DNA of 64,000 bases from Pirellulales bacterium (GCA_018401745.1 JAGYJY010000020.1:32250-96249), one strand, 5' to 3'. Counted from the stretch's first letter, positions 4,142 to 27,210 are shown. Notes: generated by a model not told the origin, from the sequence alone. Numbers and translations: made by a program.

Positions 4142-4162
4142 CGGCAGTTCTCCGCTGGCAGC

Positions 4163-5057: not shown

Positions 5058-5143
5058 CTCGTCCGCCTCGCTGCATCACCTCGTGCAAGTGTACGTGGTG
5101 ATGTGCCCGGCTGGCTGACGAGAAACAATCGAAAACCCGGCGA

Positions 5144-6046: not shown

Positions 6047-6265
6047 CCGTTGGGTTCCTCCATGACAGGTCTGGCCACCGCGGCGGAACTCGTAGCGGAG
6101 CCATCAACGCTGCAGCATCCCTGCAGCGGGCGGAGTCTAGCCAGGCCAGATCCCGCCTACCAGATCAGTAATCGGGCCGAAAACACGGGAAATTCAAGCC
6201 AAAACTTGTTGTTTTTACCATTCCCGGACATGCTGAGCAGGAACAACCCGCGAGCCACCCCCCCG

Positions 6266-6994
6266 ATGGCACACCTGCACACGATCGACATGCCTTCTTT
6301 CGCTGGTCGACCGCCACTGAGCCTGACGTGCATCGAATCCTCGCCGTTTGCTGAAAACAGCTACGTGCTGGCGAGGACCGATCGCGGAATCTGCGTGGTG
6401 TTTGATCCAGGGTTTGAGCCCGACGCGATCATCGATGTGATCGAATCGAACGGCCTCGCCCCGCAGGCCATCCTGCTGACACACGGCCATTCCGACCACA
6501 TCGCCGGCAATGCCGCCCTCAAACAGCGGTGGCCGGATCTGCCCATTCTGGTGGGGGAATCCGAGGCCAACAAACTGATCGACCCTGAGAAAAACCTCTC
6601 GCGGGGCTTTGGCATCGACCTGGTCAGCCCGCCCGCCGACCGCATGCTTCGCGACCACGAGCGATTCGAAATCGCTGGCTTTCTCTTCGAGGTGCACGAA
6701 ATCCCGGGGCATTCCTCCGGGCATGTCGCCTTCCTTGTGTGGCCCGAAGAGGCCCATGACGGCCCGCCGATGGTCTTTGCCGGTGACATCCTCTTTCGCG
6801 GAAGTATCGGTCGCACTGACTTTCCCGACGGCAGCTTCCCGATCCTCGCCGCCGGGATTCGTGAACGGCTCTACCCGCTCCCGGAGGCGAGCCTCGTGCT
6901 CCCCGGCCATGGTGAGCCGACCACAATCGGCCGCGAACGAACCAGCAACCCCTACGTGACGGCAGCAGGCGACGGGCGCGGCGAGGTCACCTGA
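6266..6994 (+). CDS. MBL-fold metallo-hydrolase (glyoxalase II-like)
   Basis: HxHxDH motif 'LLTHGHSDHIAG', a later 'PGHSSGH', and 'GRTDFPDGS' typical of the hydroxyacylglutathione-hydrolase-like subgroup. The start was chosen at MAHLH; an alternative ATG is at 6230. Confidence 0.8.
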   Translation: MAHLHTIDMPSFAGRPPLSLTCIESSPFAENSYVLARTDRGICVVFDPGFEPDAIIDVIESNGLAPQAILLTHGHSDHIAGNAALKQRWPDLPILVGESEANKLIDPEKNLSRGFGIDLVSPPADRMLRDHERFEIAGFLFEVHEIPGHSSGHVAFLVWPEEAHDGPPMVFAGDILFRGSIGRTDFPDGSFPILAAGIRERLYPLPEASLVLPGHGEPTTIGRERTSNPYVTAAGDGRGEVT

Positions 6995-7146
6995 GCGGCC
7001 CTGCCAGGCATCGCCCCGCGGCTGCTGAGCAACTCCCACCGACGGACAACTGCCGAATTGATCTTTTTGCCCGTCAGTCTGCAGAATCTTCGAGCATACT
7101 GAAGGAAGAGGTTGATTCCTCGCAGCTTCGACGCGTTTGCCAGGCC

Positions 7147-7830
7147 ATGCTTTCCCCAGCCGATCCCCACCTGACGACGCCGCCGCCGGCCGCTGCAAAC
7201 GTGGTGGGCCGATCTCCGGTGTGCCATGCCGCTGGCCTGACGCTCGCCGCGATCGCCAGGGTGCTCTCCGGGGCAAGCGTTCGCTGGATCGCCAGCCAGC
7301 CCGACACATGCCAGCGGGTCTACTTCTCCAACCACACCAGCCATCTCGACGCCTTGCTGATCTGGTCGTCGCTGCCAAGGGCGGTGCGAGAACTCGCCAG
7401 GCCGGTGGCGGCCAAAGACTACTGGTCGCGGGGCGCTGTCCGCCGTTGGCTTGCGGAGAAAGTCTTCAACGCCCTGCTGATCGACCGCACTGACATCAAA
7501 GTGCACCAGAGCCCGGTGGACCTGATGCTTCGCGAGATCGGTGACACGAAGTCGCTGATCGTGTTTCCCGAGGGAAGCCGCAGCGTCAACGGCGAGATCG
7601 GCGACTTCAAGAGCGGGCTCTACTACCTCGCCAAGAAGCGGCCGGAACTCGAGCTCGTGCCTGTGCATGTCGACAACCTCAACCGCGTGCTGCCGCGTGG
7701 CGAGTTTCTGCCGGTCCCGATGCTCTCCTGCATCACCTTTGGCCCGCCGCTGTGGCTGGAACAGCAGGAAGCGAAGCTCGACTTTCTGGCGCGGGCCCGG
7801 CGGGCCGTCATGGCTCTCAAGGAATCCTGA
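7147..7830 (+). CDS. plsC: 1-acyl-sn-glycerol-3-phosphate acyltransferase
   Basis: Acyltransferase HX4D motif 'NHTSHLDAL' and 'VFPEGSRS' motif. Located next to cdsA. Confidence 0.85.
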   Translation: MLSPADPHLTTPPPAAANVVGRSPVCHAAGLTLAAIARVLSGASVRWIASQPDTCQRVYFSNHTSHLDALLIWSSLPRAVRELARPVAAKDYWSRGAVRRWLAEKVFNALLIDRTDIKVHQSPVDLMLREIGDTKSLIVFPEGSRSVNGEIGDFKSGLYYLAKKRPELELVPVHVDNLNRVLPRGEFLPVPMLSCITFGPPLWLEQQEAKLDFLARARRAVMALKES

Positions 7831-7852
7831 GAAGGGCCGGCCCGACGCAACC

Positions 7853-8830
7853 ATGAACGACCCCCGAACGCTCGCCTTGATTGTCGGCGTGCTCGCCCTG
7901 CTGGCCATCGTGACGGCCGTTGGCCAGTTTCTCCGCCGGCATCCCGACCGCGGTCTCGACCCTGCCGCCATCCGCTCTTTCAACAGCCGCATCCGCGGCT
8001 GGTGGATCATGTGCACCGTCTTGGCGGCCGCCTTCTGGCTGGGCACCACTGCCACCTTGGTGCTCTTTGGGCTCGTCTCCTTTTGGGCACTGCGGGAGTT
8101 CATCACGCTCACCCCCACAAGGCTCGGCGACCACCGCGCCCTGTTCTGGGTGTTTTTCGCCTTCACACCCGCCCACTACATCCTCGTGGGCTACGACCGC
8201 TACGACATTTTCAGCATTTTTCTCCCGCTCTACGGCACGCTCTTTGTCCTGGCCCGCGTGGCGATTGCCGGAGACTCCAAGCGGTTTCTTGAGCGGACAG
8301 CAAAGATTCAGGCTGGCCTGATGGTCTGCGTCTACTGCCTGTCGTTTGCGCCTGCCCTGCTGCAGCTGCCGGTCGCCACGCCGGCCAACGCCGAACCTCC
8401 GCTGGCCGCCACGGCCAACTTTCGGCTGCTCTTCTTCTTGATCCTGCTCGTGCAGTTTGCCGACTGCATGCAGTATGTCTGGAGCCGCATGATCGGCCGG
8501 CGACTGGTGGCTGCCTCGGTCAGCTCCAACCGAACCTGGGAGGGCCTGCTGGGCAGCGCTGTGAGCACCTCGCTGCTCGCCTCAGTCCTCTGGTGGGCAG
8601 CCCCGCCCTATCAGCCCTGGCAGGCGGCCCTGGCCGGATTTGTCGTGTCGCTGATGGGGTTTGCCGGCGGGATGACGATGTCGGCAATCAAGCGCGACCG
8701 TGGCGTGACCGACTATGGCACGCTCGTGACCGGGCATGGCGGCGTGCTCGATCGCATCGACTCAACCTGCTTCGCAGCACCGGTCTTCTACCACATCACC
8801 TTGCTGGTGGCCGACGTGGCCGTCCGCTGA
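7853..8830 (+). CDS. cdsA: phosphatidate cytidylyltransferase
   Basis: Polytopic membrane protein with the C-terminal CTP-transferase signature 'SAIKRDRGVTDYGTLVTGHGGVLDRIDS'. The start was set at MNDPRTLAL, just after the plsC stop; the upstream part of the ORF looks non-coding. Confidence 0.85.
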   Translation: MNDPRTLALIVGVLALLAIVTAVGQFLRRHPDRGLDPAAIRSFNSRIRGWWIMCTVLAAAFWLGTTATLVLFGLVSFWALREFITLTPTRLGDHRALFWVFFAFTPAHYILVGYDRYDIFSIFLPLYGTLFVLARVAIAGDSKRFLERTAKIQAGLMVCVYCLSFAPALLQLPVATPANAEPPLAATANFRLLFFLILLVQFADCMQYVWSRMIGRRLVAASVSSNRTWEGLLGSAVSTSLLASVLWWAAPPYQPWQAALAGFVVSLMGFAGGMTMSAIKRDRGVTDYGTLVTGHGGVLDRIDSTCFAAPVFYHITLLVADVAVR

Positions 8831-9813
8831 GGCTGCTCCGCGGGAGTGGCGGCAGCAGGAGGCGGTGCACTGCCCGCTCGCTGGTAGATCGACTGCCGAC
8901 GCGGCACCGAGGCGAGTTGCACCGGCGGCCGAGGCGGGCCGCCCGGATCTCTGCTTGGGTCTGGGCTCTGGCCGCGAGCGACAGGTGCGGCTGGCTGTTG
9001 CTCAGCCGCCACGAGCGTGGCCGGCGGTGCCGGGCATCCCTGCCGCACCCAGTCGAGCCAGACAGCCTGCATCTGCGGGGGATCAGCGATGCCGTAGAAG
9101 TTTTGCAGCGTGGCTGACCAGTTGCCACTGGCGAGCCCCTGACCAACAAAGTCAACATATTTTCTTCGGCCACCCCGCTCGATCAGGTAGCGAGCTAGCG
9201 AGTAGCCCTGGGCGTAGAGCGGCAGGACGTCGGGAGGATACTCCCGCATCGCAAACATCTGCGGGAAAGCGATGCCGCGGCCGGTGGTGAGAAACTCAAT
9301 CAGCATGCGATGCTGCCGCGCCCGCTCAGAGGGATGCTCCACCGTCGTGCAGGCGCCTTCGTCGGCCCACCGCGGCAGCGGCTGCCGAAAGTGACTGGCA
9401 AAGATGGTGTGGGTGACTTCATGCGGCAGCACCGAGTCGAGGATCCGCTGCTCGCTGCCCTGGATGGTCATCTGCCAGCCAAACACCTCACCGCGATCAA
9501 AGACAAAGCTCGTCGCTCCGCCAGCACCGAGGCTGTCTGCCACCTCCGCGGTGATTGGGCAGGGGCTCGCCCACCGCGGCAGCGGCCGGCCTGTCCACTC
9601 GATCGCCAGGTCGTGCCGGTATTGCTCAGCGGCGTCACCGATCTTGCGAGCAAGCTCTGGCGTTGGGGCTTCGATCACAAAGTTTGGGGTGCGGTAGCTT
9701 GCTGCCTCGACGGAACCGCCGTTGGCTGTCATGGCCACCACCAACGGGACCACCACCAACGCCATGAACCACCGCTGAGGGCCACTCATGGCGTCTTTGC
9801 AATCGGCTTCCAT
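8788..9813 (-). CDS. secreted protein with HExxH motif (putative zinc metallopeptidase-like)
   Basis: Signal peptide 'WFMALVVVPLVVAMTANGGSVEA', motif 'LPHEVTHTIF' followed by 'RWADEGA', and a Pro/Ala-rich C-terminal tail. It lies directly downstream of the giant paralog block, and its 3' end overlaps cdsA convergently. Confidence 0.5.
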   Translation of the reverse strand: MEADCKDAMSGPQRWFMALVVVPLVVAMTANGGSVEAASYRTPNFVIEAPTPELARKIGDAAEQYRHDLAIEWTGRPLPRWASPCPITAEVADSLGAGGATSFVFDRGEVFGWQMTIQGSEQRILDSVLPHEVTHTIFASHFRQPLPRWADEGACTTVEHPSERARQHRMLIEFLTTGRGIAFPQMFAMREYPPDVLPLYAQGYSLARYLIERGGRRKYVDFVGQGLASGNWSATLQNFYGIADPPQMQAVWLDWVRQGCPAPPATLVAAEQQPAAPVARGQSPDPSRDPGGPPRPPVQLASVPRRQSIYQRAGSAPPPAAATPAEQPQRTATSATSKVMW

Positions 9814-10013
9814 GCCCGCAGTTCTCCGTCATCGCTGCGTGCCAGCCTGACGGGCGTGGCCTCCTTGCCACACTGCGACGGCTTCGCGGGGACGGCCAAC
9901 GGCCGCCCTCGCCACGCGTGGGGGCGAACCGTAGCGAAGCCTCGGCAACGGGAGCCAGACCTTTTTCAGGCCGGAAAAACGCCCTTGCAATGCGGGGTTT
10001 TCCGCAGCCGCCA

Positions 10014-11207
10014 TCAGCCGCCGGCCGGCCCGACCGAATCCCGGATCACGAGTGCGGTCTCTGCAGCGGTCGGCTTCGACGCTGAGCGAATCAGTCGCCG
10101 CACAAGCCCGACCACGCCGCCGGCCACGAGCAGGCCACCAGGCCAGGCAGGCTGCAGAAGCGTGGCCCAGACCGCTCCCAGAGCAAGCAGGGCCACCGGC
10201 CCAAACTGGGCAAGCAGCCCTGTCAACCGCGCCGGACGGCGGATCGCCATGCTCCAGGCCGCACCTGCCGCGAGAATAGCTGCCGCCGTTGCCACCGCAC
10301 GCGATGAGTCGGTGGGAGTCGGCTTCGGAGCAGCCCTGACGATGATGCCTCCTTCGGGATCCGTCGTCGTGGCAAACACCTCCGAAGAGAGGGCGAGGGA
10401 TGTGCGATTCCAGGCCTGCTCGGCCGCGCTCTGCTGCGAACGCTCAAACAGTGAAGCCACCTGCTCTTCGATGCGTGCACGCTCACGGGCATCGCGCCCC
10501 TCGAGCGAACGCCGCAGGCTGGCCTTGAGCCTCTGCGATGCCTCCTCTCGGAGCGTGGCGATCTCGTTGGCCGAAGCCTGGGCCGATGGAGCGAGGATCC
10601 GCATGTCGAGGCCGCGAGGCCCGCGGATCATCCAGGTTACTTTCCGGGTGGGAATGCCAGGCAGCTTGGGTGTCTCCAGCCGCAACGGCAAGCCCGAGAC
10701 GAGCTGGTCGTCGATGTCTCCGGCAAAGATCACCAAGATTGTTCGGGGCCGGCTGACATCGAGCAGTTCCAGCTCCCAGGCAGCCTCCCCCACCGGCCTC
10801 GCACGCAACGGGTGCTCATCGACAAAGACTTCAAACAGCCGCATGCCTGCGGGCAGCTGCAGCCGCACCAGCCGGCTCGAAGGCACCAGATCGATCCTGG
10901 CCACGCCCCAGGCCTTCCCGCGGTCGTCGGTGGCAAACCGTACGTCGAGCAGCTCCACACGCGGGATGCTCGTCTCCCGCCTCAGCACCCGCGGGGCCAG
11001 GCTCGGTCGCCCGGCTCTCAGCACCGCTGTCGTGCCCCTCGTCAGCCGCCAAGGCTGCTCCGTCAGATTCCTCAGGCCTGCGTCGGTAGGCGAGCAGGCG
11101 ACCTGGGGGCAGTTCGAGCGACTGCCACCCCGACGACGAGAGCGGGATGATGGGCGTATCGCCGGCAGACTCGACGTTGACGCCTTCGTCGGTTGGCCAC
11201 TCGACAA
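10014..11207 (-). CDS. giant membrane protein paralog C, C-terminal segment (hypothetical)
   Basis: The convincing coding part starts around '...LRNLTEQPWRLTRGTTAVLRAG'. It contains the module 'LFEVFVDEHPLRARP...TRKVTWMIRGPRGLDM', a coiled-coil-like stretch, and terminal hydrophobic helices ('AVATAAAILAAGAAWSMAI', 'FGPVALLALGAVWATLL', 'GLLVAGGVVGLV'). It overlaps the previous segment by about 375 nt in another frame, with the junction near 11060-11100. Confidence 0.6.
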   Translation of the reverse strand: MSSGQPTKASTSSLPAIRPSSRSRRRGGSRSNCPQVACSPTDAGLRNLTEQPWRLTRGTTAVLRAGRPSLAPRVLRRETSIPRVELLDVRFATDDRGKAWGVARIDLVPSSRLVRLQLPAGMRLFEVFVDEHPLRARPVGEAAWELELLDVSRPRTILVIFAGDIDDQLVSGLPLRLETPKLPGIPTRKVTWMIRGPRGLDMRILAPSAQASANEIATLREEASQRLKASLRRSLEGRDARERARIEEQVASLFERSQQSAAEQAWNRTSLALSSEVFATTTDPEGGIIVRAAPKPTPTDSSRAVATAAAILAAGAAWSMAIRRPARLTGLLAQFGPVALLALGAVWATLLQPAWPGGLLVAGGVVGLVRRLIRSASKPTAAETALVIRDSVGPAGG

Positions 11208-12066
11208 TCACCGGCGTGTCTCCAAGCCCTTCGATCCAGGGCACAGCCACCGACCCCATCTCCGCGGCACCTCTCGGCTCACGGGCCTCGAGATCAAAAC
11301 GAAAGCGACCAGAGCGGGGCTGCTGACAGAGCACTTCCAGCGTTTGCTCGTCAACCCGCGTCCAGTGGATGTCTTGCGGCGACGCCTGCAACGCCCCCGT
11401 GCGGGGAGCCGTGACCCTCGCCAAGCCCAGCCGGTCCACCGTCCAGCGTGGCGGAATCGTCACCCGAAAAGACGCCACCGCTGCTTCAAAGGAGTCGACC
11501 GACGCGTCGAACCGAAGACGCACGCGACCGTCGACCATGTCCAGTCGCATCCGCTGCGTGCCCCGCAACACCGCCGGCTCGCGTGAGACCGTGACCACCG
11601 CGGGCGACACACCAGCCGTTGCCGCGGCACTCGGTTCTCTTCGCCAGGCCAGCCAGCCGTTGCCGCTGGCGGGATCGGTGGGCGTGCCCGCGGTCACCCC
11701 CGCTGGAAGCCGCACGGTGGCGGCGTAGCCCTCGCCCGGCACAAACTGCACCAGCCGTGTTGATTGGGCAGAACTCAGCGAGGCAATCTCCACCTCTGGC
11801 ACGCGAAACACACCGACGGGATCCACCAGCGGCATCGCGAAAGGCACGCTCACGGTTGCCCGACCACGCGCCGGCTGAAGCCGCTCGACCAGCCATCGGC
11901 CGTCATCGATCCGCCGCACACTCACCGCTTCGCTTCCCGCAGGCAGTTCGCCGACGGCTGGCGTGAGCCGCGTGTCGGCCGTCACGACAAATGACCGAAA
12001 GATCCCGTCGTTGGGTTCAAGCTGAAAGCTGGCTACCACAGCACATCCCAGCGCATCCCACGACAC
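10831..12066 (-). CDS. giant membrane protein paralog C, middle segment (hypothetical)
   Basis: 411-aa ORF rich in beta-strand-like V/R/T/E patterns. Its last ~80 aa are an Arg/Ala/Gly-rich out-of-frame-looking tail, while the next segment continues in another frame. The reading frame is open upstream of the GTG start ('SWFEDPRVVAARNDV...'), which suggests continuity with ORF 12017..15283. Confidence 0.55.
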   Translation of the reverse strand: MSWDALGCAVVASFQLEPNDGIFRSFVVTADTRLTPAVGELPAGSEAVSVRRIDDGRWLVERLQPARGRATVSVPFAMPLVDPVGVFRVPEVEIASLSSAQSTRLVQFVPGEGYAATVRLPAGVTAGTPTDPASGNGWLAWRREPSAAATAGVSPAVVTVSREPAVLRGTQRMRLDMVDGRVRLRFDASVDSFEAAVASFRVTIPPRWTVDRLGLARVTAPRTGALQASPQDIHWTRVDEQTLEVLCQQPRSGRFRFDLEAREPRGAAEMGSVAVPWIEGLGDTPVIVEWPTDEGVNVESAGDTPIIPLSSSGWQSLELPPGRLLAYRRRPEESDGAALAADEGHDSGAESRATEPGPAGAEAGDEHPACGAARRTVCHRRPREGLGRGQDRSGAFEPAGAAAAARRHAAV

Positions 12067-15000
12067 ATCGTTGCGGGCGGCAACGACACGCGGATCCTCG
12101 AACCAGCTTCACCCCCGGCTCCAACGACCAACACAAACGAAGCAGGTCGGTTTGAGCGATGTCGAAGCCGCTCCCTGTGGCCTCGCTCAAGGGCGTCGCT
12201 GAGGCGATCGGGAGCCCGCTCCGCTCCCGCTCGACGAGCAGCGAGGAGACGTCGATGCCGCTGTCGGTCTCGACCATGCGGAGCGTGGCCTGCGGCGCGA
12301 CAGGCAGCCCCACCATGGCCAGCCCGACTCCTCCCTCAAGCCGTACCGCAGGCTCAATCCGCACGCTCAGCCGATGCTGCCCGGGAACAGCCAGCGGCAC
12401 CCGCAGGAGGCTGCCATCTGGTGAAATCGACTCGCCTGGGAGTTCGCCGGCGGTGCCGCCGTCGAGCTCCAGCGAGCCTCTGACAAACCGTCCTCCGCCG
12501 GCGGGCTGCCGCAGCGTGCACACCGTATTGGCATCAGACAAGAGGTCAACAGTGACCTGCCACTCGTCAGGGCCCGCCGGCGTGGTGCCGGGCTCCGCGT
12601 CGAGCCCGGCTGCAAGCGGAGGCTGGCCCACCGCCATGGCAGCCGGCACAGTGGCGGCCACCGTCACCCGCTCGATCCGAACACCGAGCCCTTCAGTCGC
12701 ATCCACGCTCCGGCCGAGCTCGCGAAACAGTCTGTCGGGCACGAGCACCGTCGCATCGGCTGCCTCACCGGTGAAAAACACCCGCAATGGTGCCGACGGC
12801 TCTGAGACCGTTTCGGCGGCAGTGAGTTCGCCGCCACCGCATCCCAAAGCCAGCAGGACCATCAGCACCGTTGCCGTGCGACCGCCTGCGACGGCGACCG
12901 CCATGCCCAACAGCCCGCCCCACCAGGCCGCTCGAACAATGGCCACCACGCTGACGGGTGCCCAGAGGGCAGCCACCGCCGTAAGCCCACAGATGGCAAC
13001 GGCCACCGCTGGCGACCTCCTGCTCAAGAACCAGGTGGAGATCGCAGCGACGAGGCCGGCGACCAGGCTCGACGACACCACCAGCCAGCTCGACACGAGC
13101 ACCACGCCCGCCATCATGCTCCGGCCCGAGGTCGGTGCGAAGGCGTGCAGACGGAAGCCGTCGACAACCACGGCGGTGGGGTTGGCCCCGGCCGAGACGA
13201 GAGGGGATCCAGCAGACGTGGATGCCACCAGCGAGGAACCGAGCAGCCGCTCGAGCCATCCCACCTGGGCCTGCTCCAGCTGCTGGTGCAGGACCGGCAC
13301 ATGAGCGATCCGCAGCCCGGGAGGCAGCCCCACCTGCCAGAGCCGCTCGAGCACAGGCAGGTCGATCACCCCGGCGATCGGATCGACACTCCACGCCTGC
13401 CCCCAGCCTGGAATCAACGGGCGGGCAGAGGCGAGGGCATGAATCTCCAACCGAATCATGCGTCGCCCAGCGGGCAACTCGATCACCGTTTCTCCGCCGA
13501 GCGTTTCCCGGACACCTGCCACGAGCTGCACGCCATCGACCAGGATCTCCTGAATCCGTTTGTCGGGTGGATGGCTGAGGATGATGCTCGAGCGGCCATG
13601 ATTCTCGATGTCAAAGACGGTTTCATACTCGATCACGCCGGAGGTGTGGCACCAGCAGGTCGTCGTCTCATTCCAGGCCCAAGCTCGCGGGGCGACCCCA
13701 TCATCGCCGCCCGGCACCAGCCGCGCTGCCGCCTGCCCGCCGGCAAGGTCCCGCAGCGGGTCGAAGAGAAACCGCGAGACCGACGTCGCATACCGCTCTG
13801 TATCACCGGCAACACCAGGAACCTCAGACAGCGTGCGGTTGACCACGAGCGGCCGCCGCCGCCCTGCATCCCGAATCTGGAGCTCGCCCACCGGGCTGGC
13901 AGCTCCCTCGACCCACGCCAGCGGCACATTCATCGGACCGCTAAAAGGCACGGCCTGCACGCCGCGGAGTGTGACCGGCCCCCGCGCGGGCGGCACCAGC
14001 TCCAGCAGCCACGATTCCATCGCCTGGGCAGGGTCTCGCGGTTCCTGCGGCTGCAGCCGCCGAGCGAGCAGCTTCCCGGTCGTGGGAGGCAGCAGCGTCC
14101 ACTCCATGCCATCGCTGGTCGGCTCTGAGAAATGCACGACGACCGAATCCAGCTCGGCATCCCGCGGCGAGCATTCCAGTGTGAACGACTCCGTCAAGCG
14201 ATCGTCTCGCACCGTCAGCCGCACCTGCGTCTGCACATCGATTGGTGCCCGTCGCCGCAGTAGCCGAAGCGTGCGGCTGTCGTCACCATCCCTGACCAAT
14301 AGCCGGAGCCGAACGCCGCTGTCGCCTGCGAGCTTGCGGAGCCCGGGCGGCAGCTGGTCCAGCGGCACGGAGTCGACCGTCTGCCCACCGCCGTCGATGG
14401 TCATCTCCGCATTCGTGCGAATCTCGAGAGCGGCAGCCTCTTCGTTGGCGAGCTTCAGCATCTCCAGCGACGATCGGGCAAACGGCTCTCCCTCCCGCAA
14501 GGGGCCGCGGTGGCCCATCACATTCACCCGCACCGTGCTGCCCCGGGAGACGCCGCTGACCAGACCGATTCTCAGTCGACTTCCTTCCTCCGCCGCCTCC
14601 ACCCGCCAGTCGGCACGCTCCGCCCGGCTGGGAATCTCAACGGAGTCGATCAGCCATCCCGGAGCCACCTGACCGGTCAGCTCAAACACCTCGCCCCGCT
14701 CAACGCTGACCTCGCAGGCCGCCTGGGCAATCACAGATCCTGCCGAGATGTCGACCGTGGTCACGCGATGAACCTGCACCTGGGGCTTCCGGGCCGCGAC
14801 CGTCAGCGAGAGCGACGCCTGGGAAGCCTGCGCCTCAAACGCCAGCCGAGGCCCCGCAGCCGGCTCCGCGGTGATGGCCATCGGCCAGCCTCTGACAATC
14901 TCTTCGTCGACCGGCAGATAGTCGACGGGATTCAGACGCTCGACTACAAGCCGCGGCTCGAGCTCGGCAACCACCCCTCCCCCGGCCCAGAGGCCATCAG

Positions 15001-15283
15001 GAGGCAGGATCGCCGGGAGCGTCCAGGGCCTGCCGATGCCAAACGCTGCGATCGATTCGATCACCAGCTGCCCTCGCGTGCCGATGGCCCGCGTGGGGAT
15101 CTGCACGACCAGTTCGTCGTTCGCTGCGTCGCCAGCCACCGCGTCGGTGGCCGCTGAGTCCAACGAAGAGGCCGGCCGTCGCCAGGAGAGGGATGCGGTG
15201 CCCTGGTCGTCGGTCAGCGTCGCCGCCACCACGGTGAGCCCCGCCGCACCCCGCAGGCGCACATCAGTCTTTGTCCAGGGCAT
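12017..15283 (-). CDS. giant ORF carrying the bulk of paralog B, a multi-pass hydrophobic block, and the N-terminal part of paralog C in one frame (hypothetical)
   Basis: 1088-aa ORF. It contains the B module 'IQEILVDGVQLVAGV...PVLERLWQVGLPPGLRI', followed by about four hydrophobic helices. An internal signal-peptide-like 'MAVAVAGGRTATVLMVLLALGCGGG' (ATG at 12904) follows, then 'PLRVFFTGEAADATVLVPDRLFRELG', which resembles the N-termini of paralogs A and B. Confidence 0.65.
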   Translation of the reverse strand: MPWTKTDVRLRGAAGLTVVAATLTDDQGTASLSWRRPASSLDSAATDAVAGDAANDELVVQIPTRAIGTRGQLVIESIAAFGIGRPWTLPAILPPDGLWAGGGVVAELEPRLVVERLNPVDYLPVDEEIVRGWPMAITAEPAAGPRLAFEAQASQASLSLTVAARKPQVQVHRVTTVDISAGSVIAQAACEVSVERGEVFELTGQVAPGWLIDSVEIPSRAERADWRVEAAEEGSRLRIGLVSGVSRGSTVRVNVMGHRGPLREGEPFARSSLEMLKLANEEAAALEIRTNAEMTIDGGGQTVDSVPLDQLPPGLRKLAGDSGVRLRLLVRDGDDSRTLRLLRRRAPIDVQTQVRLTVRDDRLTESFTLECSPRDAELDSVVVHFSEPTSDGMEWTLLPPTTGKLLARRLQPQEPRDPAQAMESWLLELVPPARGPVTLRGVQAVPFSGPMNVPLAWVEGAASPVGELQIRDAGRRRPLVVNRTLSEVPGVAGDTERYATSVSRFLFDPLRDLAGGQAAARLVPGGDDGVAPRAWAWNETTTCWCHTSGVIEYETVFDIENHGRSSIILSHPPDKRIQEILVDGVQLVAGVRETLGGETVIELPAGRRMIRLEIHALASARPLIPGWGQAWSVDPIAGVIDLPVLERLWQVGLPPGLRIAHVPVLHQQLEQAQVGWLERLLGSSLVASTSAGSPLVSAGANPTAVVVDGFRLHAFAPTSGRSMMAGVVLVSSWLVVSSSLVAGLVAAISTWFLSRRSPAVAVAICGLTAVAALWAPVSVVAIVRAAWWGGLLGMAVAVAGGRTATVLMVLLALGCGGGELTAAETVSEPSAPLRVFFTGEAADATVLVPDRLFRELGRSVDATEGLGVRIERVTVAATVPAAMAVGQPPLAAGLDAEPGTTPAGPDEWQVTVDLLSDANTVCTLRQPAGGGRFVRGSLELDGGTAGELPGESISPDGSLLRVPLAVPGQHRLSVRIEPAVRLEGGVGLAMVGLPVAPQATLRMVETDSGIDVSSLLVERERSGLPIASATPLSEATGSGFDIAQTDLLRLCWSLEPGVKLVRGSACRCRPQRCVVGCAGMCCGSQLSA

Positions 15284-15323
15284 CGCCGGCTGCAGCGTCG
15301 TCGTCAGCGAGGCGGTCTGTCGC

Positions 15324-16148
15324 TCAATCTGCCACTCGGCTCCAGCACGAGATCGGCACCTCGGGCAGCGGCTCGCGAGCGATCGTGACGACGAGCTCGC
15401 TGGTCGGGCCGAGCGAGAGCGTCCACTCGTGTTTCTCAGAGCCGGGTTCGCCTGTTCCTGATGGCGGCTCAGGTGGAACGGGAGCGACGTGGACCGCCTC
15501 CGCGGCTTTCACGAGCGGCACAAAGCCAGCGGGGAGCGTCAGCTGCACCGAGGTGAAGACTGCGGGAACCAGCGGGAGCCGAAACCTGGGGCCGAGCGAT
15601 CCTCCTGCATCAGACGGCAGCTCAAACTGCCAGCTGTAACGGCCTTCTGTCTCCGCGATGACCGCCACGGAGCCGTCGGGCAGGCCGCTGATCTCTGCGG
15701 CGCCTGTGCCCGCGGCGCCGCTCATGCTGGCTTGCGCGACCACCCGTCCTGCCAGCGGAATGGCCCGACGGAGGCCATCGATGCCGGGGCCAAGGGTCGC
15801 CGCTGCGGTTCCTCGCAGCCCCTCAGCAGGGCTCCACTCAAGCGTATAACTGGCTCTCTCGGCAATCACATTCGTCGCCGGCGACGAACCTTGTCGTTCA
15901 CCAGGTTGGTCGGAGACCGCTGCCCGATCCGCCACCGCGGCCCGAAACTCCGTGAGTGTCATCGGCACATAGCGGCCGGTTCCCAGCGGCACATCGGAGA
16001 GGCGGTCGGCCGGCACGTAGACCCGCAGGAAACGCAGGTTTTCCGGCTCGGCGGCGGTGCTGACGACGTGGCTCGAGCCCACGATCAGCAGGGCTGCCCA
16101 GACCGCAGCCGCCTGGCTGATCCTCCTCCCGCTGTGGATCGTGCTCAT
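15324..16148 (-). CDS. giant membrane protein paralog B, N-terminal segment with signal peptide (hypothetical)
   Basis: Start chosen at ATG 16148 (MSTIHSGRRISQAAAVWAALLIVGSSHVVSTAAEP), which overlaps the paralog A stop by 14 nt. The downstream ORF's frame is open upstream of its ATG ('GAEWQIERQTASLTTTLQPAMPWTK'), so the two are probably one gene with a frame switch near 15325-15350. Confidence 0.6.
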   Translation of the reverse strand: MSTIHSGRRISQAAAVWAALLIVGSSHVVSTAAEPENLRFLRVYVPADRLSDVPLGTGRYVPMTLTEFRAAVADRAAVSDQPGERQGSSPATNVIAERASYTLEWSPAEGLRGTAAATLGPGIDGLRRAIPLAGRVVAQASMSGAAGTGAAEISGLPDGSVAVIAETEGRYSWQFELPSDAGGSLGPRFRLPLVPAVFTSVQLTLPAGFVPLVKAAEAVHVAPVPPEPPSGTGEPGSEKHEWTLSLGPTSELVVTIAREPLPEVPISCWSRVAD

Positions 16149-16161
16149 AGCAACCACCCGC

Positions 16162-18420
16162 TCACGATGCCGATCGCTCCGCCGCCACACTGCGGCGGCC
16201 GCGACTCGATTCGGGCACAAAGGCCGCCAGCGCCGTGCGTGTCGACGACTGAGAAATCCTCATGCTGGCGTTGCCCGCAGCCGCAGCGGTGGGCAACCGC
16301 AACGCCACCCGCAGGCCCGCCGCCAGCAGCGAGAGCAGCAGCCCGGGAAGCGCTGCCTGCGCGAGGAGCAGAGCCAACCAGGGCGACACCGCAGCGGCGG
16401 CTGTCACCGCGACCGCCAAGAGCATCACGACCGACGGCTGTCGCAAGCGAGGCCACTGCACCAGCAGCAGCCCGATCAGCAGGGAGGGCCCAGAGCAGGC
16501 GAACACGAGGCCCCATGTCGGCACGATCCACAGACGGGCCGTCTTTGGATGGCCCACGCCAGAGAAGACGAGCCGGCGGTCGGCATACGGGATGATCTCC
16601 CCCACTGGATCCGCCGTTGCGACAGACTGCGGAGCCACCCATGTCCGCAGCATCTCCGGTGAGATGATGGCTCTGGGCAGAAAACCGAGCGTTCCCCAGG
16701 CCCACTCCTGCTGGGCCGTCCAGCCACGCGGCGACGTCAGCAGATGCTCTTCCGGCGAGAGCCGCAGCTCCCAGTAGAACCGTCGTTCCACCGCGCCGTC
16801 TGAAAACACCGGCGCTGTCAGCTCCGCCGGCTCCCAGGCTGAAGACCGCTCACGCCTCACGACAATTTCCACGGCATACTCCCGCACCGCGCCTGCGGTG
16901 ACGAGGTTGAGTGAGATCCGGCCATCGGTCCGCACCGCGTCGGCAATCGGTCGTCCGTCGAGCAGCACCTCAACCCGCGACGGGTCGGCTGACTCACCGA
17001 GCGTTCCCGGCGGCAGATCGATTTCAAGCCGCTCCACCGACGTGGCAATCCGGTAGCGATAGATGTCTTGCCGCTGGTCGGGTAGAAACCGGCTCTGCAG
17101 CCAGGCCGCATCCACCACGGTTTCCCCAAAACTCTGTGGCTCAGCGGCGATCGCCAGCCGAATGCTCTCCTGCGGCCGGCTGGAGGCCCAGCTCCGCGGC
17201 AGCGACGTTCCCTGCACGGCCATTTCCCGCTTCCACGATTCCCCCCGCACCTCGACTGAGAGCCCACGAGCCGCTTCGAGCGTCACGCTCTGCTTGCCGA
17301 AGCGAGCCCCAGCAGGCATCACCAGCGGCACATCTTCCGCCAGGGTTGTTTCCTGGGGCGGTGGGGTCGCAGGCAGACGGTAACGAATCGTCAGCTCGCC
17401 ACTTCCCAGCAGCGGCGTGGGCAGCATCACCCGTGTGCGGATCGTCGGCAGAGGGCCGCCGCCGGCGTCGCTCTCGGTTCCGCTGCCGCCGCCCGTTGAA
17501 GCACCGTCGATCACAGGACTGTCGTCGGCCTCGGGAGGAGATGGCGGCTCAACGACAGCAGCCGGCTGCGAGGCCAGCAAGCGGTCGCCCTGGCGAACCT
17601 CCAGCGTTCCGCTGGCCACCACGCTCTCCGGCACGAGCAGCTCCACAACTTCCAGCGGCACATACGCGACATCAAACCGCAACGTTTCATCAACCGTGAT
17701 TTCGGTCGGCCTCACATCGAGGCGGGCGGTGAGCGACGCGGCCACCCTGCGTGGCAGGAAACGACGCGTGGCGGCGAAGCGCCCGCTGGGACCGTCGAGC
17801 CGGTAGGCAATGGCAGTGTTTTCCGCTCGTCCGGCAGCTCCAGAGCCCTCGCTCCGCAGCAGCGGCGGCAGCGGATCGACGGCTCGATTCGCCGATGGCG
17901 AGGTCACCTGACGCACGAGCCCATCGATGGAGTCGACGTCGGGGGTGAGTTCAATGTCGCTCTCAGGAAGAATGACCACAGCAGCTGGACCGACCAGGTC
18001 GGCAGCGGGCGTGGGAAACGTCCACTCGATTCGCTCGGCATCGGGGGCCACGCTTCGTGCTGCCCGAATCTCCACGACGGCATCGCCGCTGAGTCCTTGA
18101 ACGAAGGGGATATCCACGCCGCCCGCGTTTTCCACAATCGTGGAGGTGTCCACGAGGCCCGCTGGGCCGACATCCTCGACCTCCCAGCCTTCGAGGCCGA
18201 CACGAAGCTGCGAAATCGGGGCGCCACGAACCGCCACGCGGAGCCTGGCTTCCAGTTCCACCCGCGAGGCAGCCACCCGGATGCGGTATTCAGGCTCGAC
18301 CACCACGCGGCTCCGCAACGGCCGCACCTGCAGCGGCAGACTGGCTGGCTGTGCGTCGTAGGCGAAGGCTGCCACGCAACCGCGACGCCGCAGGGCCAGC
18401 GACGGATCGACCCGCCGCAA
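16162..18420 (-). CDS. giant membrane protein paralog A, C-terminal two-thirds (hypothetical)
   Basis: 752-aa ORF with a TTG start in the track. It contains the module 'RVEVLLDGRPIADAV...AVERRFYWELRLSPEEHLL' followed by hydrophobic helices ('WGLVFACSGPSLLIGLLLVQW', 'VVMLLAVAVTAAAAVSPWLALLLAQAALPGLLLSLLAAGL'). It continues the upstream segment in another frame, with the junction near 18415-18440. Confidence 0.65.
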   Translation of the reverse strand: MRRVDPSLALRRRGCVAAFAYDAQPASLPLQVRPLRSRVVVEPEYRIRVAASRVELEARLRVAVRGAPISQLRVGLEGWEVEDVGPAGLVDTSTIVENAGGVDIPFVQGLSGDAVVEIRAARSVAPDAERIEWTFPTPAADLVGPAAVVILPESDIELTPDVDSIDGLVRQVTSPSANRAVDPLPPLLRSEGSGAAGRAENTAIAYRLDGPSGRFAATRRFLPRRVAASLTARLDVRPTEITVDETLRFDVAYVPLEVVELLVPESVVASGTLEVRQGDRLLASQPAAVVEPPSPPEADDSPVIDGASTGGGSGTESDAGGGPLPTIRTRVMLPTPLLGSGELTIRYRLPATPPPQETTLAEDVPLVMPAGARFGKQSVTLEAARGLSVEVRGESWKREMAVQGTSLPRSWASSRPQESIRLAIAAEPQSFGETVVDAAWLQSRFLPDQRQDIYRYRIATSVERLEIDLPPGTLGESADPSRVEVLLDGRPIADAVRTDGRISLNLVTAGAVREYAVEIVVRRERSSAWEPAELTAPVFSDGAVERRFYWELRLSPEEHLLTSPRGWTAQQEWAWGTLGFLPRAIISPEMLRTWVAPQSVATADPVGEIIPYADRRLVFSGVGHPKTARLWIVPTWGLVFACSGPSLLIGLLLVQWPRLRQPSVVMLLAVAVTAAAAVSPWLALLLAQAALPGLLLSLLAAGLRVALRLPTAAAAGNASMRISQSSTRTALAAFVPESSRGRRSVAAERSAS

Positions 18421-19756
18421 CGGGCCTGGCAGGGCTCCAGTCGATCTGCCAGTCGCCCTCGACCAAAACGCTGATCTGCCCCCACTGTCGCCAGGCGGGA
18501 ATCTCGCTGATGCCGAAGCCGAGCACCTCCAAGGAGCGGCCGTCGGGCTCCACCGGTGCCTCGCAGGTCAGTTCGATGACGGCTCGCCCCGAGGCATCAG
18601 GGTCGACCGAGACGACCGCCTCGGGGGCCTCATCGCTGCCTTGCAGGGCGACGAGGCCCGAAGGCGCCGCGAGCGACTCCAGCTTGGCGTAGGCGGGCAG
18701 ACGCAGGGTGATTGTCCGGCGGCCGGGAGGGAGGTGCTCAAACGCGATCACCGCCTCAGTTTTCGCCTGCCGACCATTGATGGTGACGACCAGGTCGGAG
18801 GTGGCATGCGGCGCTGCGGCCAGGGGCTCAAGCAGTGATCGCTCCGACGACAGGCGAATCCGCGTCGGCCCCACGAGGCCCACCAGCGAGACGACACTTC
18901 CTCCTTCCAAGCCTTTCTCAAGCTGAGGCGGCAGCCCGGCGGGTTCGACAGCAACCGTCGGATCGTCAACTTCCGAGAGCAGCGTCAGCCGCGAGGCGTT
19001 GGCCCGCGGCACGTCGATGCCAAACTGAAAGGTGCCGCCCGACCGCTCCACCGGGAGGCGTCCGGCAAGCACAACGCGGTGGCGGGTGCCAGGCTCACCT
19101 TGAAACCATCCCCGGTAACCCGTGCCGTCGGCGTTGGCGTCGAGAAGAAACCGGCCCGCGGCCCCTGCCAGCGTTTCGTGCTGTGGAGCCTGGGTAAACA
19201 GGGCTTCCGAGAGTTGCAGCGGCAGGCCCACCCAGCCCGTCGATGCCTGCACAACGGTCATCTCGATCCGGAGTCCTCCCGGACCTTCCACCTCGGTGAA
19301 GGCGGGATCCGCGTCAGCCGCGTCTGGTTCTGTGGTGGTGGCTGCGATGTCGGAAGCGAGGGTCGGACGGCCAGGTCGCACGTCGACCCGCATGTCGAAC
19401 TGCTCGAGCACCGCTTCTGGCGCCGTTGGCAGCTTGGGCATGCCCTCGCGAAGCCGCACGAGTTCGACGAAGTCGCGATACTGAAAGCCCGGCACCGGCA
19501 CGAGCCGACCGGCGTCGTTCTCCAGGTAATACAGCTCGGGCTCGATCTCCCGGATGGGGGCCTCAGGATCGCGTCCGGCCCCAGGTGAGACGACGACCGG
19601 CGTGGCAGCGGTCTTCGCTCCCGGCCGCTGCGGCAGGTTCAGCAGCGTCACTCTCAACCCGTGCTGCAGCTTCAGCCGGTGTTGGCTTGGGCACGGCCGC
19701 CGTCCCGGCCGTTTCCACCGGCTCACCACGCTGGCCCATCGCCACGCCGGAAACAA
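18290..19756 (-). CDS. giant membrane protein paralog A, middle segment (hypothetical)
   Basis: The convincing coding part runs from 'KTAATPVVVSPGAGRDPEAPIREIEPELYYLENDAGRLVPVPGFQYRDFVELV' to '...VLVEGDWQIDWSP'. The last ~40 aa are an Arg/Ala-rich tail that overlaps the next segment out of frame. Confidence 0.6.
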   Translation of the reverse strand: MFPAWRWASVVSRWKRPGRRPCPSQHRLKLQHGLRVTLLNLPQRPGAKTAATPVVVSPGAGRDPEAPIREIEPELYYLENDAGRLVPVPGFQYRDFVELVRLREGMPKLPTAPEAVLEQFDMRVDVRPGRPTLASDIAATTTEPDAADADPAFTEVEGPGGLRIEMTVVQASTGWVGLPLQLSEALFTQAPQHETLAGAAGRFLLDANADGTGYRGWFQGEPGTRHRVVLAGRLPVERSGGTFQFGIDVPRANASRLTLLSEVDDPTVAVEPAGLPPQLEKGLEGGSVVSLVGLVGPTRIRLSSERSLLEPLAAAPHATSDLVVTINGRQAKTEAVIAFEHLPPGRRTITLRLPAYAKLESLAAPSGLVALQGSDEAPEAVVSVDPDASGRAVIELTCEAPVEPDGRSLEVLGFGISEIPAWRQWGQISVLVEGDWQIDWSPARPVAAGRSVAGPAASRLRGSLRLRRTASQSAAAGAAVAEPRGGRA

Positions 19757-19919
19757 ACGATCCGCAGGCCACCACGCTCACCGCGGCGATCAACGCCCAG
19801 CTCGCCAGCCGCCTCGGCGCACACCAACACCACTCCCCAGCGGCCCACAAGCCCGGGCAGAGCGAGGCCGGAGATCGAGAGCGGTCGTGTCTCATGTCCT
19901 GTGAGCCTACCTTGCCCAT
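19563..19919 (-). CDS. giant membrane protein paralog A, N-terminal segment with signal-anchor (hypothetical)
   Basis: ATG preceded by an in-frame TAA. Hydrophobic anchor 'LASWALIAAVSVVACGSFVSGVAMG', then a Pro/Ala linker. The frame switches to ORF 18290..19756 near 19610-19640. Confidence 0.5.
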   Translation of the reverse strand: MGKVGSQDMRHDRSRSPASLCPGLWAAGEWCWCAPRRLASWALIAAVSVVACGSFVSGVAMGQRGEPVETAGTAAVPKPTPAEAAARVESDAAEPAAAAGSEDRCHAGRRLTWGRTRS

Positions 19920-20032
19920 TTAAACAACGCATCCAAAACACCGCTGCGATTCCCCCGTCCGGCCCCCGCACACCCGCCCCAACCACCCCAGCCGCACCAA
20001 CCCGACCCCGCTCCTGCGGCTGACCGCCGAAC

Positions 20033-20189
20033 TCGCTTCACGCCTGCGGAGGAGGGAACGGGACGGGTCCGCGGGGGCCAAAGGCCCCTCGGCTTCGCCG
20101 GGAGGGCCAGGACAGGTCCGCGGGGCCGAGCCCGTCGGCTCGCCGAGGCCGCTGCGGCCCGTGGACTCGCTCCTCGCTTCACGCCTGCG
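20033..20189. repeat. pair of 17-bp direct repeats (ctcgcttcacgcctgcg) flanking a GC-rich segment with internal 'ggtccgcgggg' repeats
   Basis: Exact copies at 20033-20049 and 20173-20189, read directly from the sequence. They lie in the 0.6 kb non-coding gap between suhB-like and the giant gene block. Confidence 0.8.
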
Positions 20190-20398
20190 AAGCCATCCTG
20201 GCCTTCGCAGGCTAAGGCGACCTGCCAGAAAGCCAAGGTTTCTCCCCGGCCGCAGACCGACGCGGAGCGTCGGACAGGCCGTCCTTTACAACGTAAGCGA
20301 GGGGTGAGCCCGGGCCGAATGAGCCGGCCTTGCAGTCGAGCGCAGCCCGGAGGGCGAAAGCGAGAATGCACGAGTGAGCGAAGCCAGGATGGCGAAGC

Positions 20399-20520
20399 GA
20401 ACGCTCGGCGAATCGGCTGGGCTCACCCGAGCGCCCGAACGCTCGGCGAATCGGCTTGGGCTCACCCCGAGCGACCCCGAACGCTCGGCGCATCGGCCTG
20501 GGCTCACCCCGAGCGACCCT
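20399..20520. repeat. three tandem copies of a ~38-42 bp unit (gaacgctcggcgaatcggctgggctcacc(c)cgagcg(a)cc(c)c)
   Basis: Units at 20399-20436, 20437-20478 and 20479-20520, with a few substitutions or indels between them. They end 14 nt from the suhB-like stop codon. Confidence 0.85.
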
Positions 20521-20533
20521 ACCAGCGGCCGCC

Positions 20534-21421
20534 TCAGCCCTTGCCCATCATGTCGCGAAGCGCTGTCAGCAGCTCGCCGGTGCCCGCGGCGATGAAGGCC
20601 GGGTTGCTCAACGGCACGGAATCACCGGGATTGCCTTGAGGGTTGCCCGGTGGAATGAGCGGCGCTGTCACACCACCGGCTTCCTGCACCAGCAGCAGGC
20701 CGGCGGCAACGTCCCAGCTGGCGATCCGGCGTGCCCAGAAGGCATCGAGCCGGCCGGCAGCGAGGTAGGCAAGGTTGAGCGCTGAGGATCCGCTGCGGCG
20801 GATGGCACGGACGGCCGGGAGCACGGCCAGGAAGTCGCGGACGGCGAGCGACTCACTGGCCGAGTGTGCGGGGAAACTGACGGCCACCAGCGATTCTGCA
20901 GGGTCGCGGGTGGTGGTGGCGGTCATCGGCTCGCCGTTGAGCCATGCGCCGTGGCCAGCACGGGCGGTGTAACACTCGTTGCTCAGCGGGTCGTAGATGG
21001 CGCCTGCCAAGAGCCGGTCTCCATCGGCGAGGGCGACCGAGACGCAGTAGGCGGGATAGCCATGCACGTAGTTGGTGGTGCCGTCGAGCGGATCGACAAC
21101 CCAGCGAAGCGGATTGGTGTGGGCAGGAGGGGCTGCCGTGTCGGGCAGGGTTTCCTCACCTTCGAAGCCGTAGTCAGGGAAGGCCGCCGACACAAGCCGC
21201 CGGATTTCGGTCTGGCTGGCCAGATCGGCTTCGGTGACAAAATCCTTTGGGCCTTTGGAAGAAACCGCGAAGCGGCCCCGCCACGACTGCAGCACGGCCG
21301 CTCCGGCACGGGCTGCTTCTTCACAGGTTTTCAGGTGCTCTTCCGTTGGCTCAATCGACGACACGCAAACTCCTTCGGTTAGCAGCACCGTGTGGCTCAA
21401 CACACAATCGCGAGCGCTCAT
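20534..21421 (-). CDS. suhB: inositol monophosphatase family protein (SuhB-like)
   Basis: IMPase motifs 'EGEE', 'WVVDPLDGTTNYVHG' and 'AAGRLDAFW...WDVAAG'. The exact start is uncertain. Confidence 0.85.
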   Translation of the reverse strand: MSARDCVLSHTVLLTEGVCVSSIEPTEEHLKTCEEAARAGAAVLQSWRGRFAVSSKGPKDFVTEADLASQTEIRRLVSAAFPDYGFEGEETLPDTAAPPAHTNPLRWVVDPLDGTTNYVHGYPAYCVSVALADGDRLLAGAIYDPLSNECYTARAGHGAWLNGEPMTATTTRDPAESLVAVSFPAHSASESLAVRDFLAVLPAVRAIRRSGSSALNLAYLAAGRLDAFWARRIASWDVAAGLLLVQEAGGVTAPLIPPGNPQGNPGDSVPLSNPAFIAAGTGELLTALRDMMGKG

Positions 21422-27205: not shown

Positions 27206-27210
27206 GCGGC

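Follow-up and report, generated by a model that had tools for sequence, protein, structure and literature searches.

A strictly paired family of large beta-sandwich proteins, putatively anchored in the cytoplasmic membrane, from uncultured Pirellulales

Introduction

Tandem beta-sandwich domains carried on a membrane anchor are a familiar design. In ribophorin I/Ost1p, a non-catalytic subunit of the oligosaccharyltransferase, and in PIG-T of the glycosylphosphatidylinositol (GPI) transamidase, beta-sandwiches on the non-cytoplasmic side are followed by helical membrane anchors and catalytic residues are absent. The integrin alpha chain is a long leg of tandem beta-sandwiches that ends in a membrane anchor, and integrins are hetero-oligomers of related type I chains. 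Very large periplasmic, membrane-tethered arrays of MG-like sandwiches are found among the bacterial alpha2-macroglobulins and the thioester proteins (ECAM/YfhM, complement C3/C5, TEP1). In Bacteroidota and Planctomycetota, the BatD-type envelope proteins of the 'aerotolerance operon' combine a signal peptide, several beta-sandwiches and a C-terminal anchor, are encoded in multi-gene envelope clusters and have unknown function. About half of planctomycete genes are without assigned function. Here we analyse positions 10014-19919 of a 64,000-nt stretch of DNA from a Pirellulales bacterium (GCA_018401745.1 JAGYJY010000020.1, 68% GC; the whole stretch is called the window), which hold two minus-strand genes, A and BC, whose products are predicted to carry three modules of this general design. 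We tentatively suggest that they form a periplasmic scaffold.

Results

Seven reading-frame pieces resolve into two genes

The 9.9-kb block is covered on ORF (open reading frame) calling by seven co-directional minus-strand pieces, the number that a first-pass annotation made from the sequence alone had reported:

19563-19919, minus strand, ORF piece 1
18290-19756, minus strand, ORF piece 2
16162-18420, minus strand, ORF piece 3
15324-16220, minus strand, ORF piece 4
12017-15283, minus strand, ORF piece 5 (1088 aa)
10831-12066, minus strand, ORF piece 6
10014-11207, minus strand, ORF piece 7

That annotation took the pieces for three tandem paralogous proteins. They are instead two genes, a single-module gene A and a two-module fusion gene BC, split by five single extra bases at ~19613 and ~18430 (gene A) and at ~15331, 12102 and ~10968 (gene BC). 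The coding frame in a position-specific GC plot steps identically by one at every junction, and the translations continue sensibly over each of them. A metagenome contig that is 95% identical (L001, aligned over 6314-20090) shows, inside the two genes, exactly five 1-nt gaps against the window, each corresponding to an extra window base. At all five sites one base is omitted, at 100% of depth, in the Logan contigs of runs X1-X4, which represent three samples (salt lake and aquatic); the X15 contigs omit four of the five, with a contig break at the fifth. Once the five bases are taken out, A reads through as one ORF of 1251 aa and BC as one of 2043 aa. Corrected A has the length of its homologue P0001 (1251 aa) and is 95% identical to it, and corrected BC has the length of P0121 (2043 aa; identity ~93-95%). 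Within the 1088-aa ORF the end of module B passes into module C in frame and without a stop codon, as it does in 52 of 52 homologues of BC, which are all single proteins (1845-3077 aa, 47 of them covering at least 89% of the query). B and C are thus one predicted protein. The ratio of nonsynonymous to synonymous substitution rates (dN/dS) of A against L001 is 0.22, and we judge from the sequences that the family is under purifying selection.

Since the contigs are without the extra bases and similar indels occur elsewhere in the window, the frame breaks are taken as errors of the whole record and not as pseudogenisation or programmed frameshifting. The frames had been flagged for repair in the first-pass annotation; the breaks are real in the record as written, and the public contigs trace them to the record rather than to biology. 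Other 1-nt indels of the window that are not supported by contigs of public runs are extra bases at 22729/31, 22937/8, 24558 and 38368 and a missing base at 29132. In relatives an AAA_27/SMC_N-type gene is one uninterrupted ORF of ~1150 aa; here the extra base at 24558 divides it in two (23648-24658 plus 24402-27335). Single-base insertions scattered over the record interrupt its long genes, and polishing is needed throughout. Programmed +1 frameshifting, with which the common direction of all five shifts would agree, was dropped, as the extra bases are absent from the public contigs. It is also extremely unlikely that the block consists of decaying pseudogenes or of seven small genes, with the module pattern a by-product of open frames at high GC. 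Such a reading would fit the five frameshifts that the 9.9 kb show as written and the long spurious ORFs that high GC yields, but the X1-X4 contigs refute it for the population, and the intact homologues of equal length, the low dN/dS, the 2554 cluster representatives of A in a 50%-identity library and the similar 1-nt errors in other genes of the window all speak against it.

Architecture of A

Gene A has more than 140 full-length homologues, mostly of 1080-1320 aa, all labelled 'hypothetical' and none with a Pfam domain. Its parts, with transmembrane abbreviated as TM, are as follows:

16162-19919, minus strand, gene A: 1251 aa after removal of the extra bases, predicted as signal peptide, linker, N-motif, ~8 beta-sandwich domains, three TM helices and an Arg-rich tail
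19734-19814, minus strand, putative signal peptide or signal anchor of A, RRLASWALIAAVSVVACGSFVSGVAMG, by sequence reading
19457-19540, minus strand, N-proximal motif of A, PELYYLENDAGRLVPVPGFQYRDFVELV, with almost no variation across the family; strand-strand-helix in the model at a predicted local distance difference test score (pLDDT) of 54-65
18274-18502, minus strand, most conserved ectodomain stretch of A (WRQWG...RRVDP...AAFAYDAQP...EPEY), from invariant alignment columns
16738-17031, minus strand, membrane-proximal beta-sandwich of A ('EVLLDGRPI' module), by hhalign of A against B (E 2.7e-9, probability 96%)
16294-16533, minus strand, three predicted C-terminal TM helices of A (model helices 1034-1106); first loop PRLRRP cytoplasmic by positive-inside reasoning, 'PG' motif before the third helix

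A lipoprotein anchor was considered and dropped, the Cys not being conserved.

Architecture of BC

BC repeats this plan twice within one polypeptide:

10014-16148, minus strand, gene BC: 2043 aa after removal of the extra bases, two A-like modules in one polypeptide
16050-16127, minus strand, putative signal peptide of the B module, by sequence reading
15933-16037, minus strand, N-proximal motif of B (LRFLRVYVP...RYVPMTLTEFRAAV), directly behind the signal peptide, from the family consensus
13307-13633, minus strand, membrane-proximal beta-sandwich of B ('IQEILVDGVQL' module), by hhalign; residues 1-170 of the BC model
12881-13117, minus strand, three predicted TM helices closing the B module (model helices 171-238 and hydropathy); loop SRRSP predicted cytoplasmic, 'RAAWWGG' motif
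12812-12880, minus strand, putative internal signal peptide opening the C module: basic n-region, hydrophobic h-region, small-residue c-region and then an acidic residue; helix 243-264 in the BC model
12713-12790, minus strand, N-proximal motif of C (PLRVFFTG...VLVPDRLFRELG), from the consensus; strand-strand-helix at 275-297 in the BC model
10602-10961, minus strand, membrane-proximal beta-sandwich of C ('LFEVFVDEHPL' module), by the second hhalign match of B against C (E 3.7e-5); model strands 880-1008
10389-10574, minus strand, predicted three-helix segment between the last sandwich of C and the membrane (model helices 1010-1066)
10092-10307, minus strand, three predicted C-terminal TM helices of C (model helices 1095-1169 and hydropathy); loop RRPAR predicted cytoplasmic, 'QPAWPG' motif

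Between the third hydrophobic helix of B ('RAAWWG...') and the start of C ('PLRVF.TP'), signal-peptide anatomy was read by eye in all 42 of the BC homologues inspected. The segment has basic residues, a hydrophobic core of 10-15 residues, small AxA-like residues and then Asp/Glu, while its sequence is not conserved. Because this anatomy recurs, we conclude that BC is two genes fused into one, either of which came with its own signal peptide. The internal copy may act as a fourth TM helix or as a re-insertion signal, with cleavage by signal peptidase I a possibility. The first-pass limits of module A (19919-16162) stand, but its border between B and C near 12905/12904 is slightly off, as C begins at the internal signal peptide (12880-12812).

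Fusion has gone further in three clusters of the representative library (P0131, P0132 and P0420), which are triple A-B-C proteins; the three lengths are 3007, 3077 and 3410 aa. The signal peptide of B is clearly retained at the A-B junction in P0131 and P0132, and a hydrophobic segment stands there in P0420. One A-B-C fusion (locus L088, 1762-10785) lies directly behind the inositol monophosphatase family gene (Inositol_P) that is usual at these loci.

It may be noted that on L001 the gene caller missed BC (3950-10243) and called three antisense ORFs and an 870-aa fragment instead. Also, an unaligned stretch of ~150 nt (7514-7666) interrupts the BC gene on that contig.

Relatedness of the modules

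BLASTP between the pieces, taken pairwise, gave nothing significant. Profile alignment by hhalign matched A with B at E 2.7e-9 (probability 96%) over the last sandwich and the TM region, A with C at E 4.6e-6 and B with C at about 3e-5. With the TM regions removed the profile scores were still 68.1 for A-B and 58 for each of the other two pairs, against 19-24 ± 3-5 for shuffled controls (column and block) and 21-26 for reversed ones, with a maximum of 33; the real scores lie about 9 or more standard deviations above the controls. The A-C ectodomain alignment is colinear across 489 columns. The motif similarity that the first-pass annotation had drawn between A, B and C is therefore borne out for the C-terminal modules, where profiles see it and BLASTP does not.

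The C-terminal anchors follow a common pattern of a first TM helix, a basic RRP-type loop, a second TM helix, a (Q/R)xA(P/W)G motif, a third TM helix and basic residues. The N-proximal motif stands in the same place in all modules, right behind the signal peptide in B and C, and is modelled as the same strand-strand-helix in A and C. We accept on these sequence comparisons that A, B and C are paralogous, with repeated sandwich types blurring the register of B and C. There are no further copies of the modules in the window.

Predicted structure, topology and fold neighbours

AlphaFold2 modelling covered A, and the tail of B together with all of C. The model of A (P0001 residues 101-1251, 60-sequence alignment) has a mean pLDDT of 81 and a predicted template-modelling score (pTM) of 0.46, and runs from an all-beta multi-domain ectodomain through a short helix, a hairpin and three long helices to a disordered basic tail. 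The model of BC residues 850-2043 (pLDDT 81, pTM 0.53) opens with the last sandwich of B and four helices (three TM helices and the internal signal peptide); the N-motif, a beta array and a set of three helices follow in this order, and a hairpin then leads to three TM helices. A beta array, helix, hairpin and three TM helices are shared, in agreement with the similar module architecture claimed earlier. By positive-inside reasoning the beta arrays are predicted to be periplasmic and the basic loops and tails cytoplasmic. Because the anchors are alpha-helical, the likely location is the cytoplasmic membrane with periplasmic ectodomains and not the cell surface. Of the envelope or cell-surface system proposed in the first-pass annotation, the large envelope proteins anchored by hydrophobic helices remain and the cell surface does not.

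Foldseek searches against the PDB returned one set of neighbours for both models, namely ribophorin I/Ost1 (E 6e-9 and 2.6e-8), integrin alpha, PIG-T and the N-domains of M1/M61 peptidases. Domains of MSCRAMM and Als adhesins were among the matches of the C-half model only. The latter matches, to the DEv-IgG folds of SdrC and ClfA (MSCRAMM) and Als9 (Als) with probabilities of 0.9-1.0, raise the question of whether A and BC work at the cell surface, as adhesins or otherwise, with Ig-like domains that attach to particles or polymers outside the cell. Many relatives come from lakes, where some planctomycetes colonise particles (PMC6461901), which would suit such a role. We consider it quite unlikely, as alpha-helical bundles of three TM helices with positive-inside loops denote the cytoplasmic membrane of a diderm. 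The C-termini are these bundles and carry neither LPxTG nor a PEP-CTERM-like end; an outer-membrane beta-barrel is not predicted, and lectin or carbohydrate-binding Pfam domains are absent.

The membrane part could also be read as a channel or transporter made of 3 + 4 + 3 helices, with the beta arrays as its periplasmic conduit or gate. In agreement with this, each A+BC unit is predicted to have ten TM helices, in which Pro/Gly/Trp motifs are conserved, and a fixed stoichiometry with gene fusions is typical of membrane machines. However, these helices consist almost entirely of hydrophobic residues and conserve few polar ones, neither an ATPase nor another energising partner is conserved beside A-BC, and no transporter is among the 50 Foldseek matches listed per model. 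We rate a transporter as very unlikely.

No recognisable or catalytic domain had been seen in the first-pass annotation, and Pfam and NCBIfam likewise find none in the seven pieces, in the intact homologues P0001 and P0121 or in the distant P0047 (Pfam E<=1); P0166 and P0170 have only unrelated sub-threshold Pfam matches. The A-family profile, searched against PDB sequences, matched none at E<=1, and neither A nor BC contains an HExxH, CxEQ or LPxTG motif. Profile and Foldseek searches assigned the modules to no well-characterised family, and no description of the A/BC family was found in the literature searched, which concerned giant genes of planctomycetes, integrin-like proteins and ribophorin-like proteins of bacteria.

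Distribution and gene order

In the 50%-identity cluster library, the A family has 2554 representatives at E<=1e-3 and 1015 at E<=1e-30. It occurs in at least 173 species-level genomes. The 80 listed are all metagenome-assembled genomes (MAGs), mostly labelled Pirellulales, Planctomycetia, Planctomycetaceae or Planctomycetota, and many of them are from lakes. Seven loci with A-BC of the Pirellulales type at 38-47% identity carry other labels, Candidatus Kuenenia (L014, L022, L026, L036) or Chitinophagaceae/Chitinophaga (L010, L081, L084); these labels are implausible and look unreliable.

The synteny in related Planctomycetota that the first-pass annotation had proposed to check is complete for the pair itself, as BC starts less than 600 nt behind A in 74 of 74 related loci with sequence past A. 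In L004 and L005, and also in the distant L087, the stop of A and the start of BC share 4 nt, and a 13-nt spacer separates them in the window and in L002. The gene order of the window is that of the relatives: Lactamase_B, acyltransferase and CdsA genes on the plus strand; the gene of an HExxH protein, BC and A on the minus strand; a repeat spacer; Inositol_P on the minus strand; and a divergent AAA_27 cluster. The most constant neighbour of A-BC is

20534-21421, minus strand, inositol monophosphatase family gene (Inositol_P; Pfam E 6e-56)

which in 62 of 65 loci precedes A-BC on its strand and is kept in L087, whose BC has only 24% identity. Neither promoters nor terminators were found on scanning the gap between BC and the HExxH gene and the region upstream of A.

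The HExxH neighbour

The secreted HExxH protein that the first-pass annotation placed directly after the block is present:

8788-9813, minus strand, gene of a predicted secreted HExxH protein; HEVTH at 9409-9423 (residue 131), with the Glu in WADEG 17 residues past the second His

In 49 sequences, residues 37-260 are nearly invariant, and HEVTH and WADEG both lie inside nearly invariant stretches. Peptidase_MA_2 (PF13485) matches the window protein with 15.6 bits and its homologues with 24.7-26.4 bits, against a gathering threshold of 32.4. Being below this threshold, the protein is placed as a distant clan MA relative and not a curated member; it is a predicted, uncharacterised Peptidase_MA_2-like gluzincin. 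A PDB search with it returned only a low-complexity artefact (Crov588) without a valid stretch.

Its position suggests that A and BC might be accessory or substrate-presenting subunits of this metallopeptidase, their sandwiches, similar to M1/M61 N-domains, complementing a stand-alone thermolysin-like catalytic domain in trans to give a membrane-tethered periplasmic protease. The gene is downstream of BC on the same strand in 37 of 43 loci. Both models match M1/M61 N-terminal domains (7xyo, 5ni6, 6ifg, 6mgq) with probability 1.0 and the lowest root-mean-square deviations. The protein itself is secreted and has HEVTH with a downstream Glu, and its sub-threshold Peptidase_MA_2 match reaches E 7e-6. 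Yet the gene is inverted in L011 and L068 and absent from the distant L087, and in a marine Pirellulales genome it adjoins cdsA/plsC/Lactamase_B where no A-BC is present. With more than 5700 homologues, found beside cdsA/plsC/Lactamase_B across Pirellulales, it is spread more widely than A-BC. It is also 65-80% identical over loci where A is ~40% and BC ~30% identical, and because its identity is so much higher it does not appear to co-evolve with A-BC. A joint protease is thus unlikely. The HExxH protein is probably not a dedicated part of the system, and with a minority chance of being a partner it is best read as a neighbour that belongs to the cdsA block.

Repeat spacer and other features of the window

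The repeat-rich region of about 0.6 kb that had been noted ahead of the block was recovered:

19920-20533, no strand, repeat-rich intergenic region upstream of A; 42-nt palindromic unit three times at 20396-20519, imperfect direct and inverted repeats at 19961-20393

Over 19920-20763, the depth of the spacer repeat in public contigs is ~100 times that of its flanks (18212 against ~175 in X1; 2014 against 29 in X15), and the number of repeats in the spacer varies between contigs. It looks like a high-copy dispersed element similar to repetitive extragenic palindromes (REP) or miniature inverted-repeat transposable elements (MITE); the 42-nt repeat has no other copy in the window.

Two further observations concern other parts of the window. 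ARAGORN calls a 92-nt tRNA-Thr(CGU) at 25612-25703 on the minus strand, inside the plus-strand AAA_27/SMC-like ORF, and this is probably a false positive. At 2585-5101 (possibly from ~30), beside DUF1571 (5144-6046), there is an 838-aa ORF as written, with no Pfam match. In L086, a marine relative, the product of the gene next to DUF1571 is longer than 2159 aa, and the 2585-5101 ORF may be a second fragmented giant gene. By tblastn it is unrelated to A and BC.

Discussion

The reading that we prefer, and hold tentatively as a little short of probable, is that A and BC form a scaffold of three modules without enzymatic activity, which is held in the cytoplasmic membrane and extends into the periplasm. 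The genes A and BC are intact and linked in translation, their source is an aquatic lineage of Pirellulales that is uncultured, and each module is predicted to be exported by its own signal peptide. A module would consist of the conserved N-terminal strand-strand-helix, about seven or eight periplasmic beta-sandwiches, a short helix and hairpin, and a bundle of three TM helices with the basic RRP-type loop and tail in the cytoplasm. BC arose by fusion of two module genes, the second signal peptide being kept as an internal re-insertion helix that signal peptidase may cut. Translational coupling, the B-C fusion and the occasional full fusion suggest that the modules are made in equal amounts. 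We infer that A, B and C, made 1:1:1, assemble through their homologous TM bundles and their N-motifs, the latter being candidate interface elements because they are nearly invariant and yet modelled with low confidence. The resulting hetero-oligomer may stand in the periplasm like the legs of integrins or the ribophorin subunit of the oligosaccharyltransferase, and would hold or space envelope partners without any catalysis.

Several points weigh against this reading. The pTM values of 0.46-0.53 mean that the relative arrangement of the domains is undefined. The signal peptides and their cleavage sites were read by eye. The N-proximal motifs alone score 10-18 in hhalign, inside the shuffle range, and for this part the similarity claimed earlier between A, B and C lacks significance. 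In the profile match of B with C the register is shifted, which may come from domain types that recur and not from paralogy in colinear order. Many unrelated proteins are matched by beta-sandwiches in tandem and the Foldseek template-modelling scores (TM-scores) are <=0.3, although low values are expected because the proteins are flexible and multi-domain. The conserved stretch WRQWG...RRVDP...EPEY of A could be an unrecognised active or binding site. Also, X15, the sole run labelled 'RNA', has flat depth over genes and spacers, as DNA would, and no transcript evidence was found; because of its flat depth this run is uninformative on expression or on an operon.

A more far-reaching version of the scaffold would make A, B and C a pseudo-trimeric envelope machine of ~350 kDa and of an undescribed kind, specific to planktonic Pirellulales. 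Anchored in the cytoplasmic membrane and with its polyprotein cut at the internal signal peptide, it would span the enlarged planctomycete periplasm and space or shape the envelope or dock a periplasmic process. We regard this as improbable.

The large, lineage-restricted and strictly paired A-BC family is in any case a defined candidate, open to testing, for a structural part of the unusual envelope of planctomycetes, and a good target for structural and cell-biological follow-up. Its immediate impact is modest, since no new biochemical principle is indicated and the hosts are uncultured.

Comparison with known systems

An alpha2-macroglobulin-like trap was dropped. Although such proteins are in the Foldseek list of A, their probability there is 0.13-0.28, and there is no CxEQ motif, no A2M or TED Pfam domain and no PBP1c gene nearby. 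BatD-type proteins are similar to A and BC in the layout given in the Introduction, but differ in size and in the number of TM helices, and no Pfam BatD, BatA, vWA, DUF58 or MoxR match exists in A, BC or their neighbours.

Integrin alpha is matched by Foldseek at E 8e-8 to 1e-5 over ~800 aligned columns, and its assembly with related chains is the model that we favour for A+B+C. Unlike integrin alpha, A and BC are without an FG-GAP beta-propeller head or Pfam integrin domains, the models showing sandwiches only; they also have no equivalent of the beta-chain and carry a three-helix anchor, and signalling has no support.

The best Foldseek matches of both models are ribophorin I/Ost1p and PIG-T (E 6e-9 to 1e-7, probability 1.0). 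As these proteins share with A and BC the absence of catalytic residues, the likeness points to a scaffolding role. Unlike ribophorin I, A and BC have no match to Pfam Ribophorin_I (PF04597), and the TM-score normalised to the target is ~0.3. No STT3/PglB-like or transamidase gene is found among the genes that flank A-BC in L002, L004, L005, L087 and the window. Compared with ribophorin I and PIG-T, A and BC are 3-5 times larger, with seven or eight domains instead of two and three TM helices instead of one, and their hosts are bacteria. The first-pass annotation had singled out the block as something undescribed, and this is so at the level of family and function but not of fold class. No family described so far includes A and BC; the class of proteins with beta-sandwiches in tandem on an anchor in the membrane is familiar, and it is the three-module organisation that is unusual.

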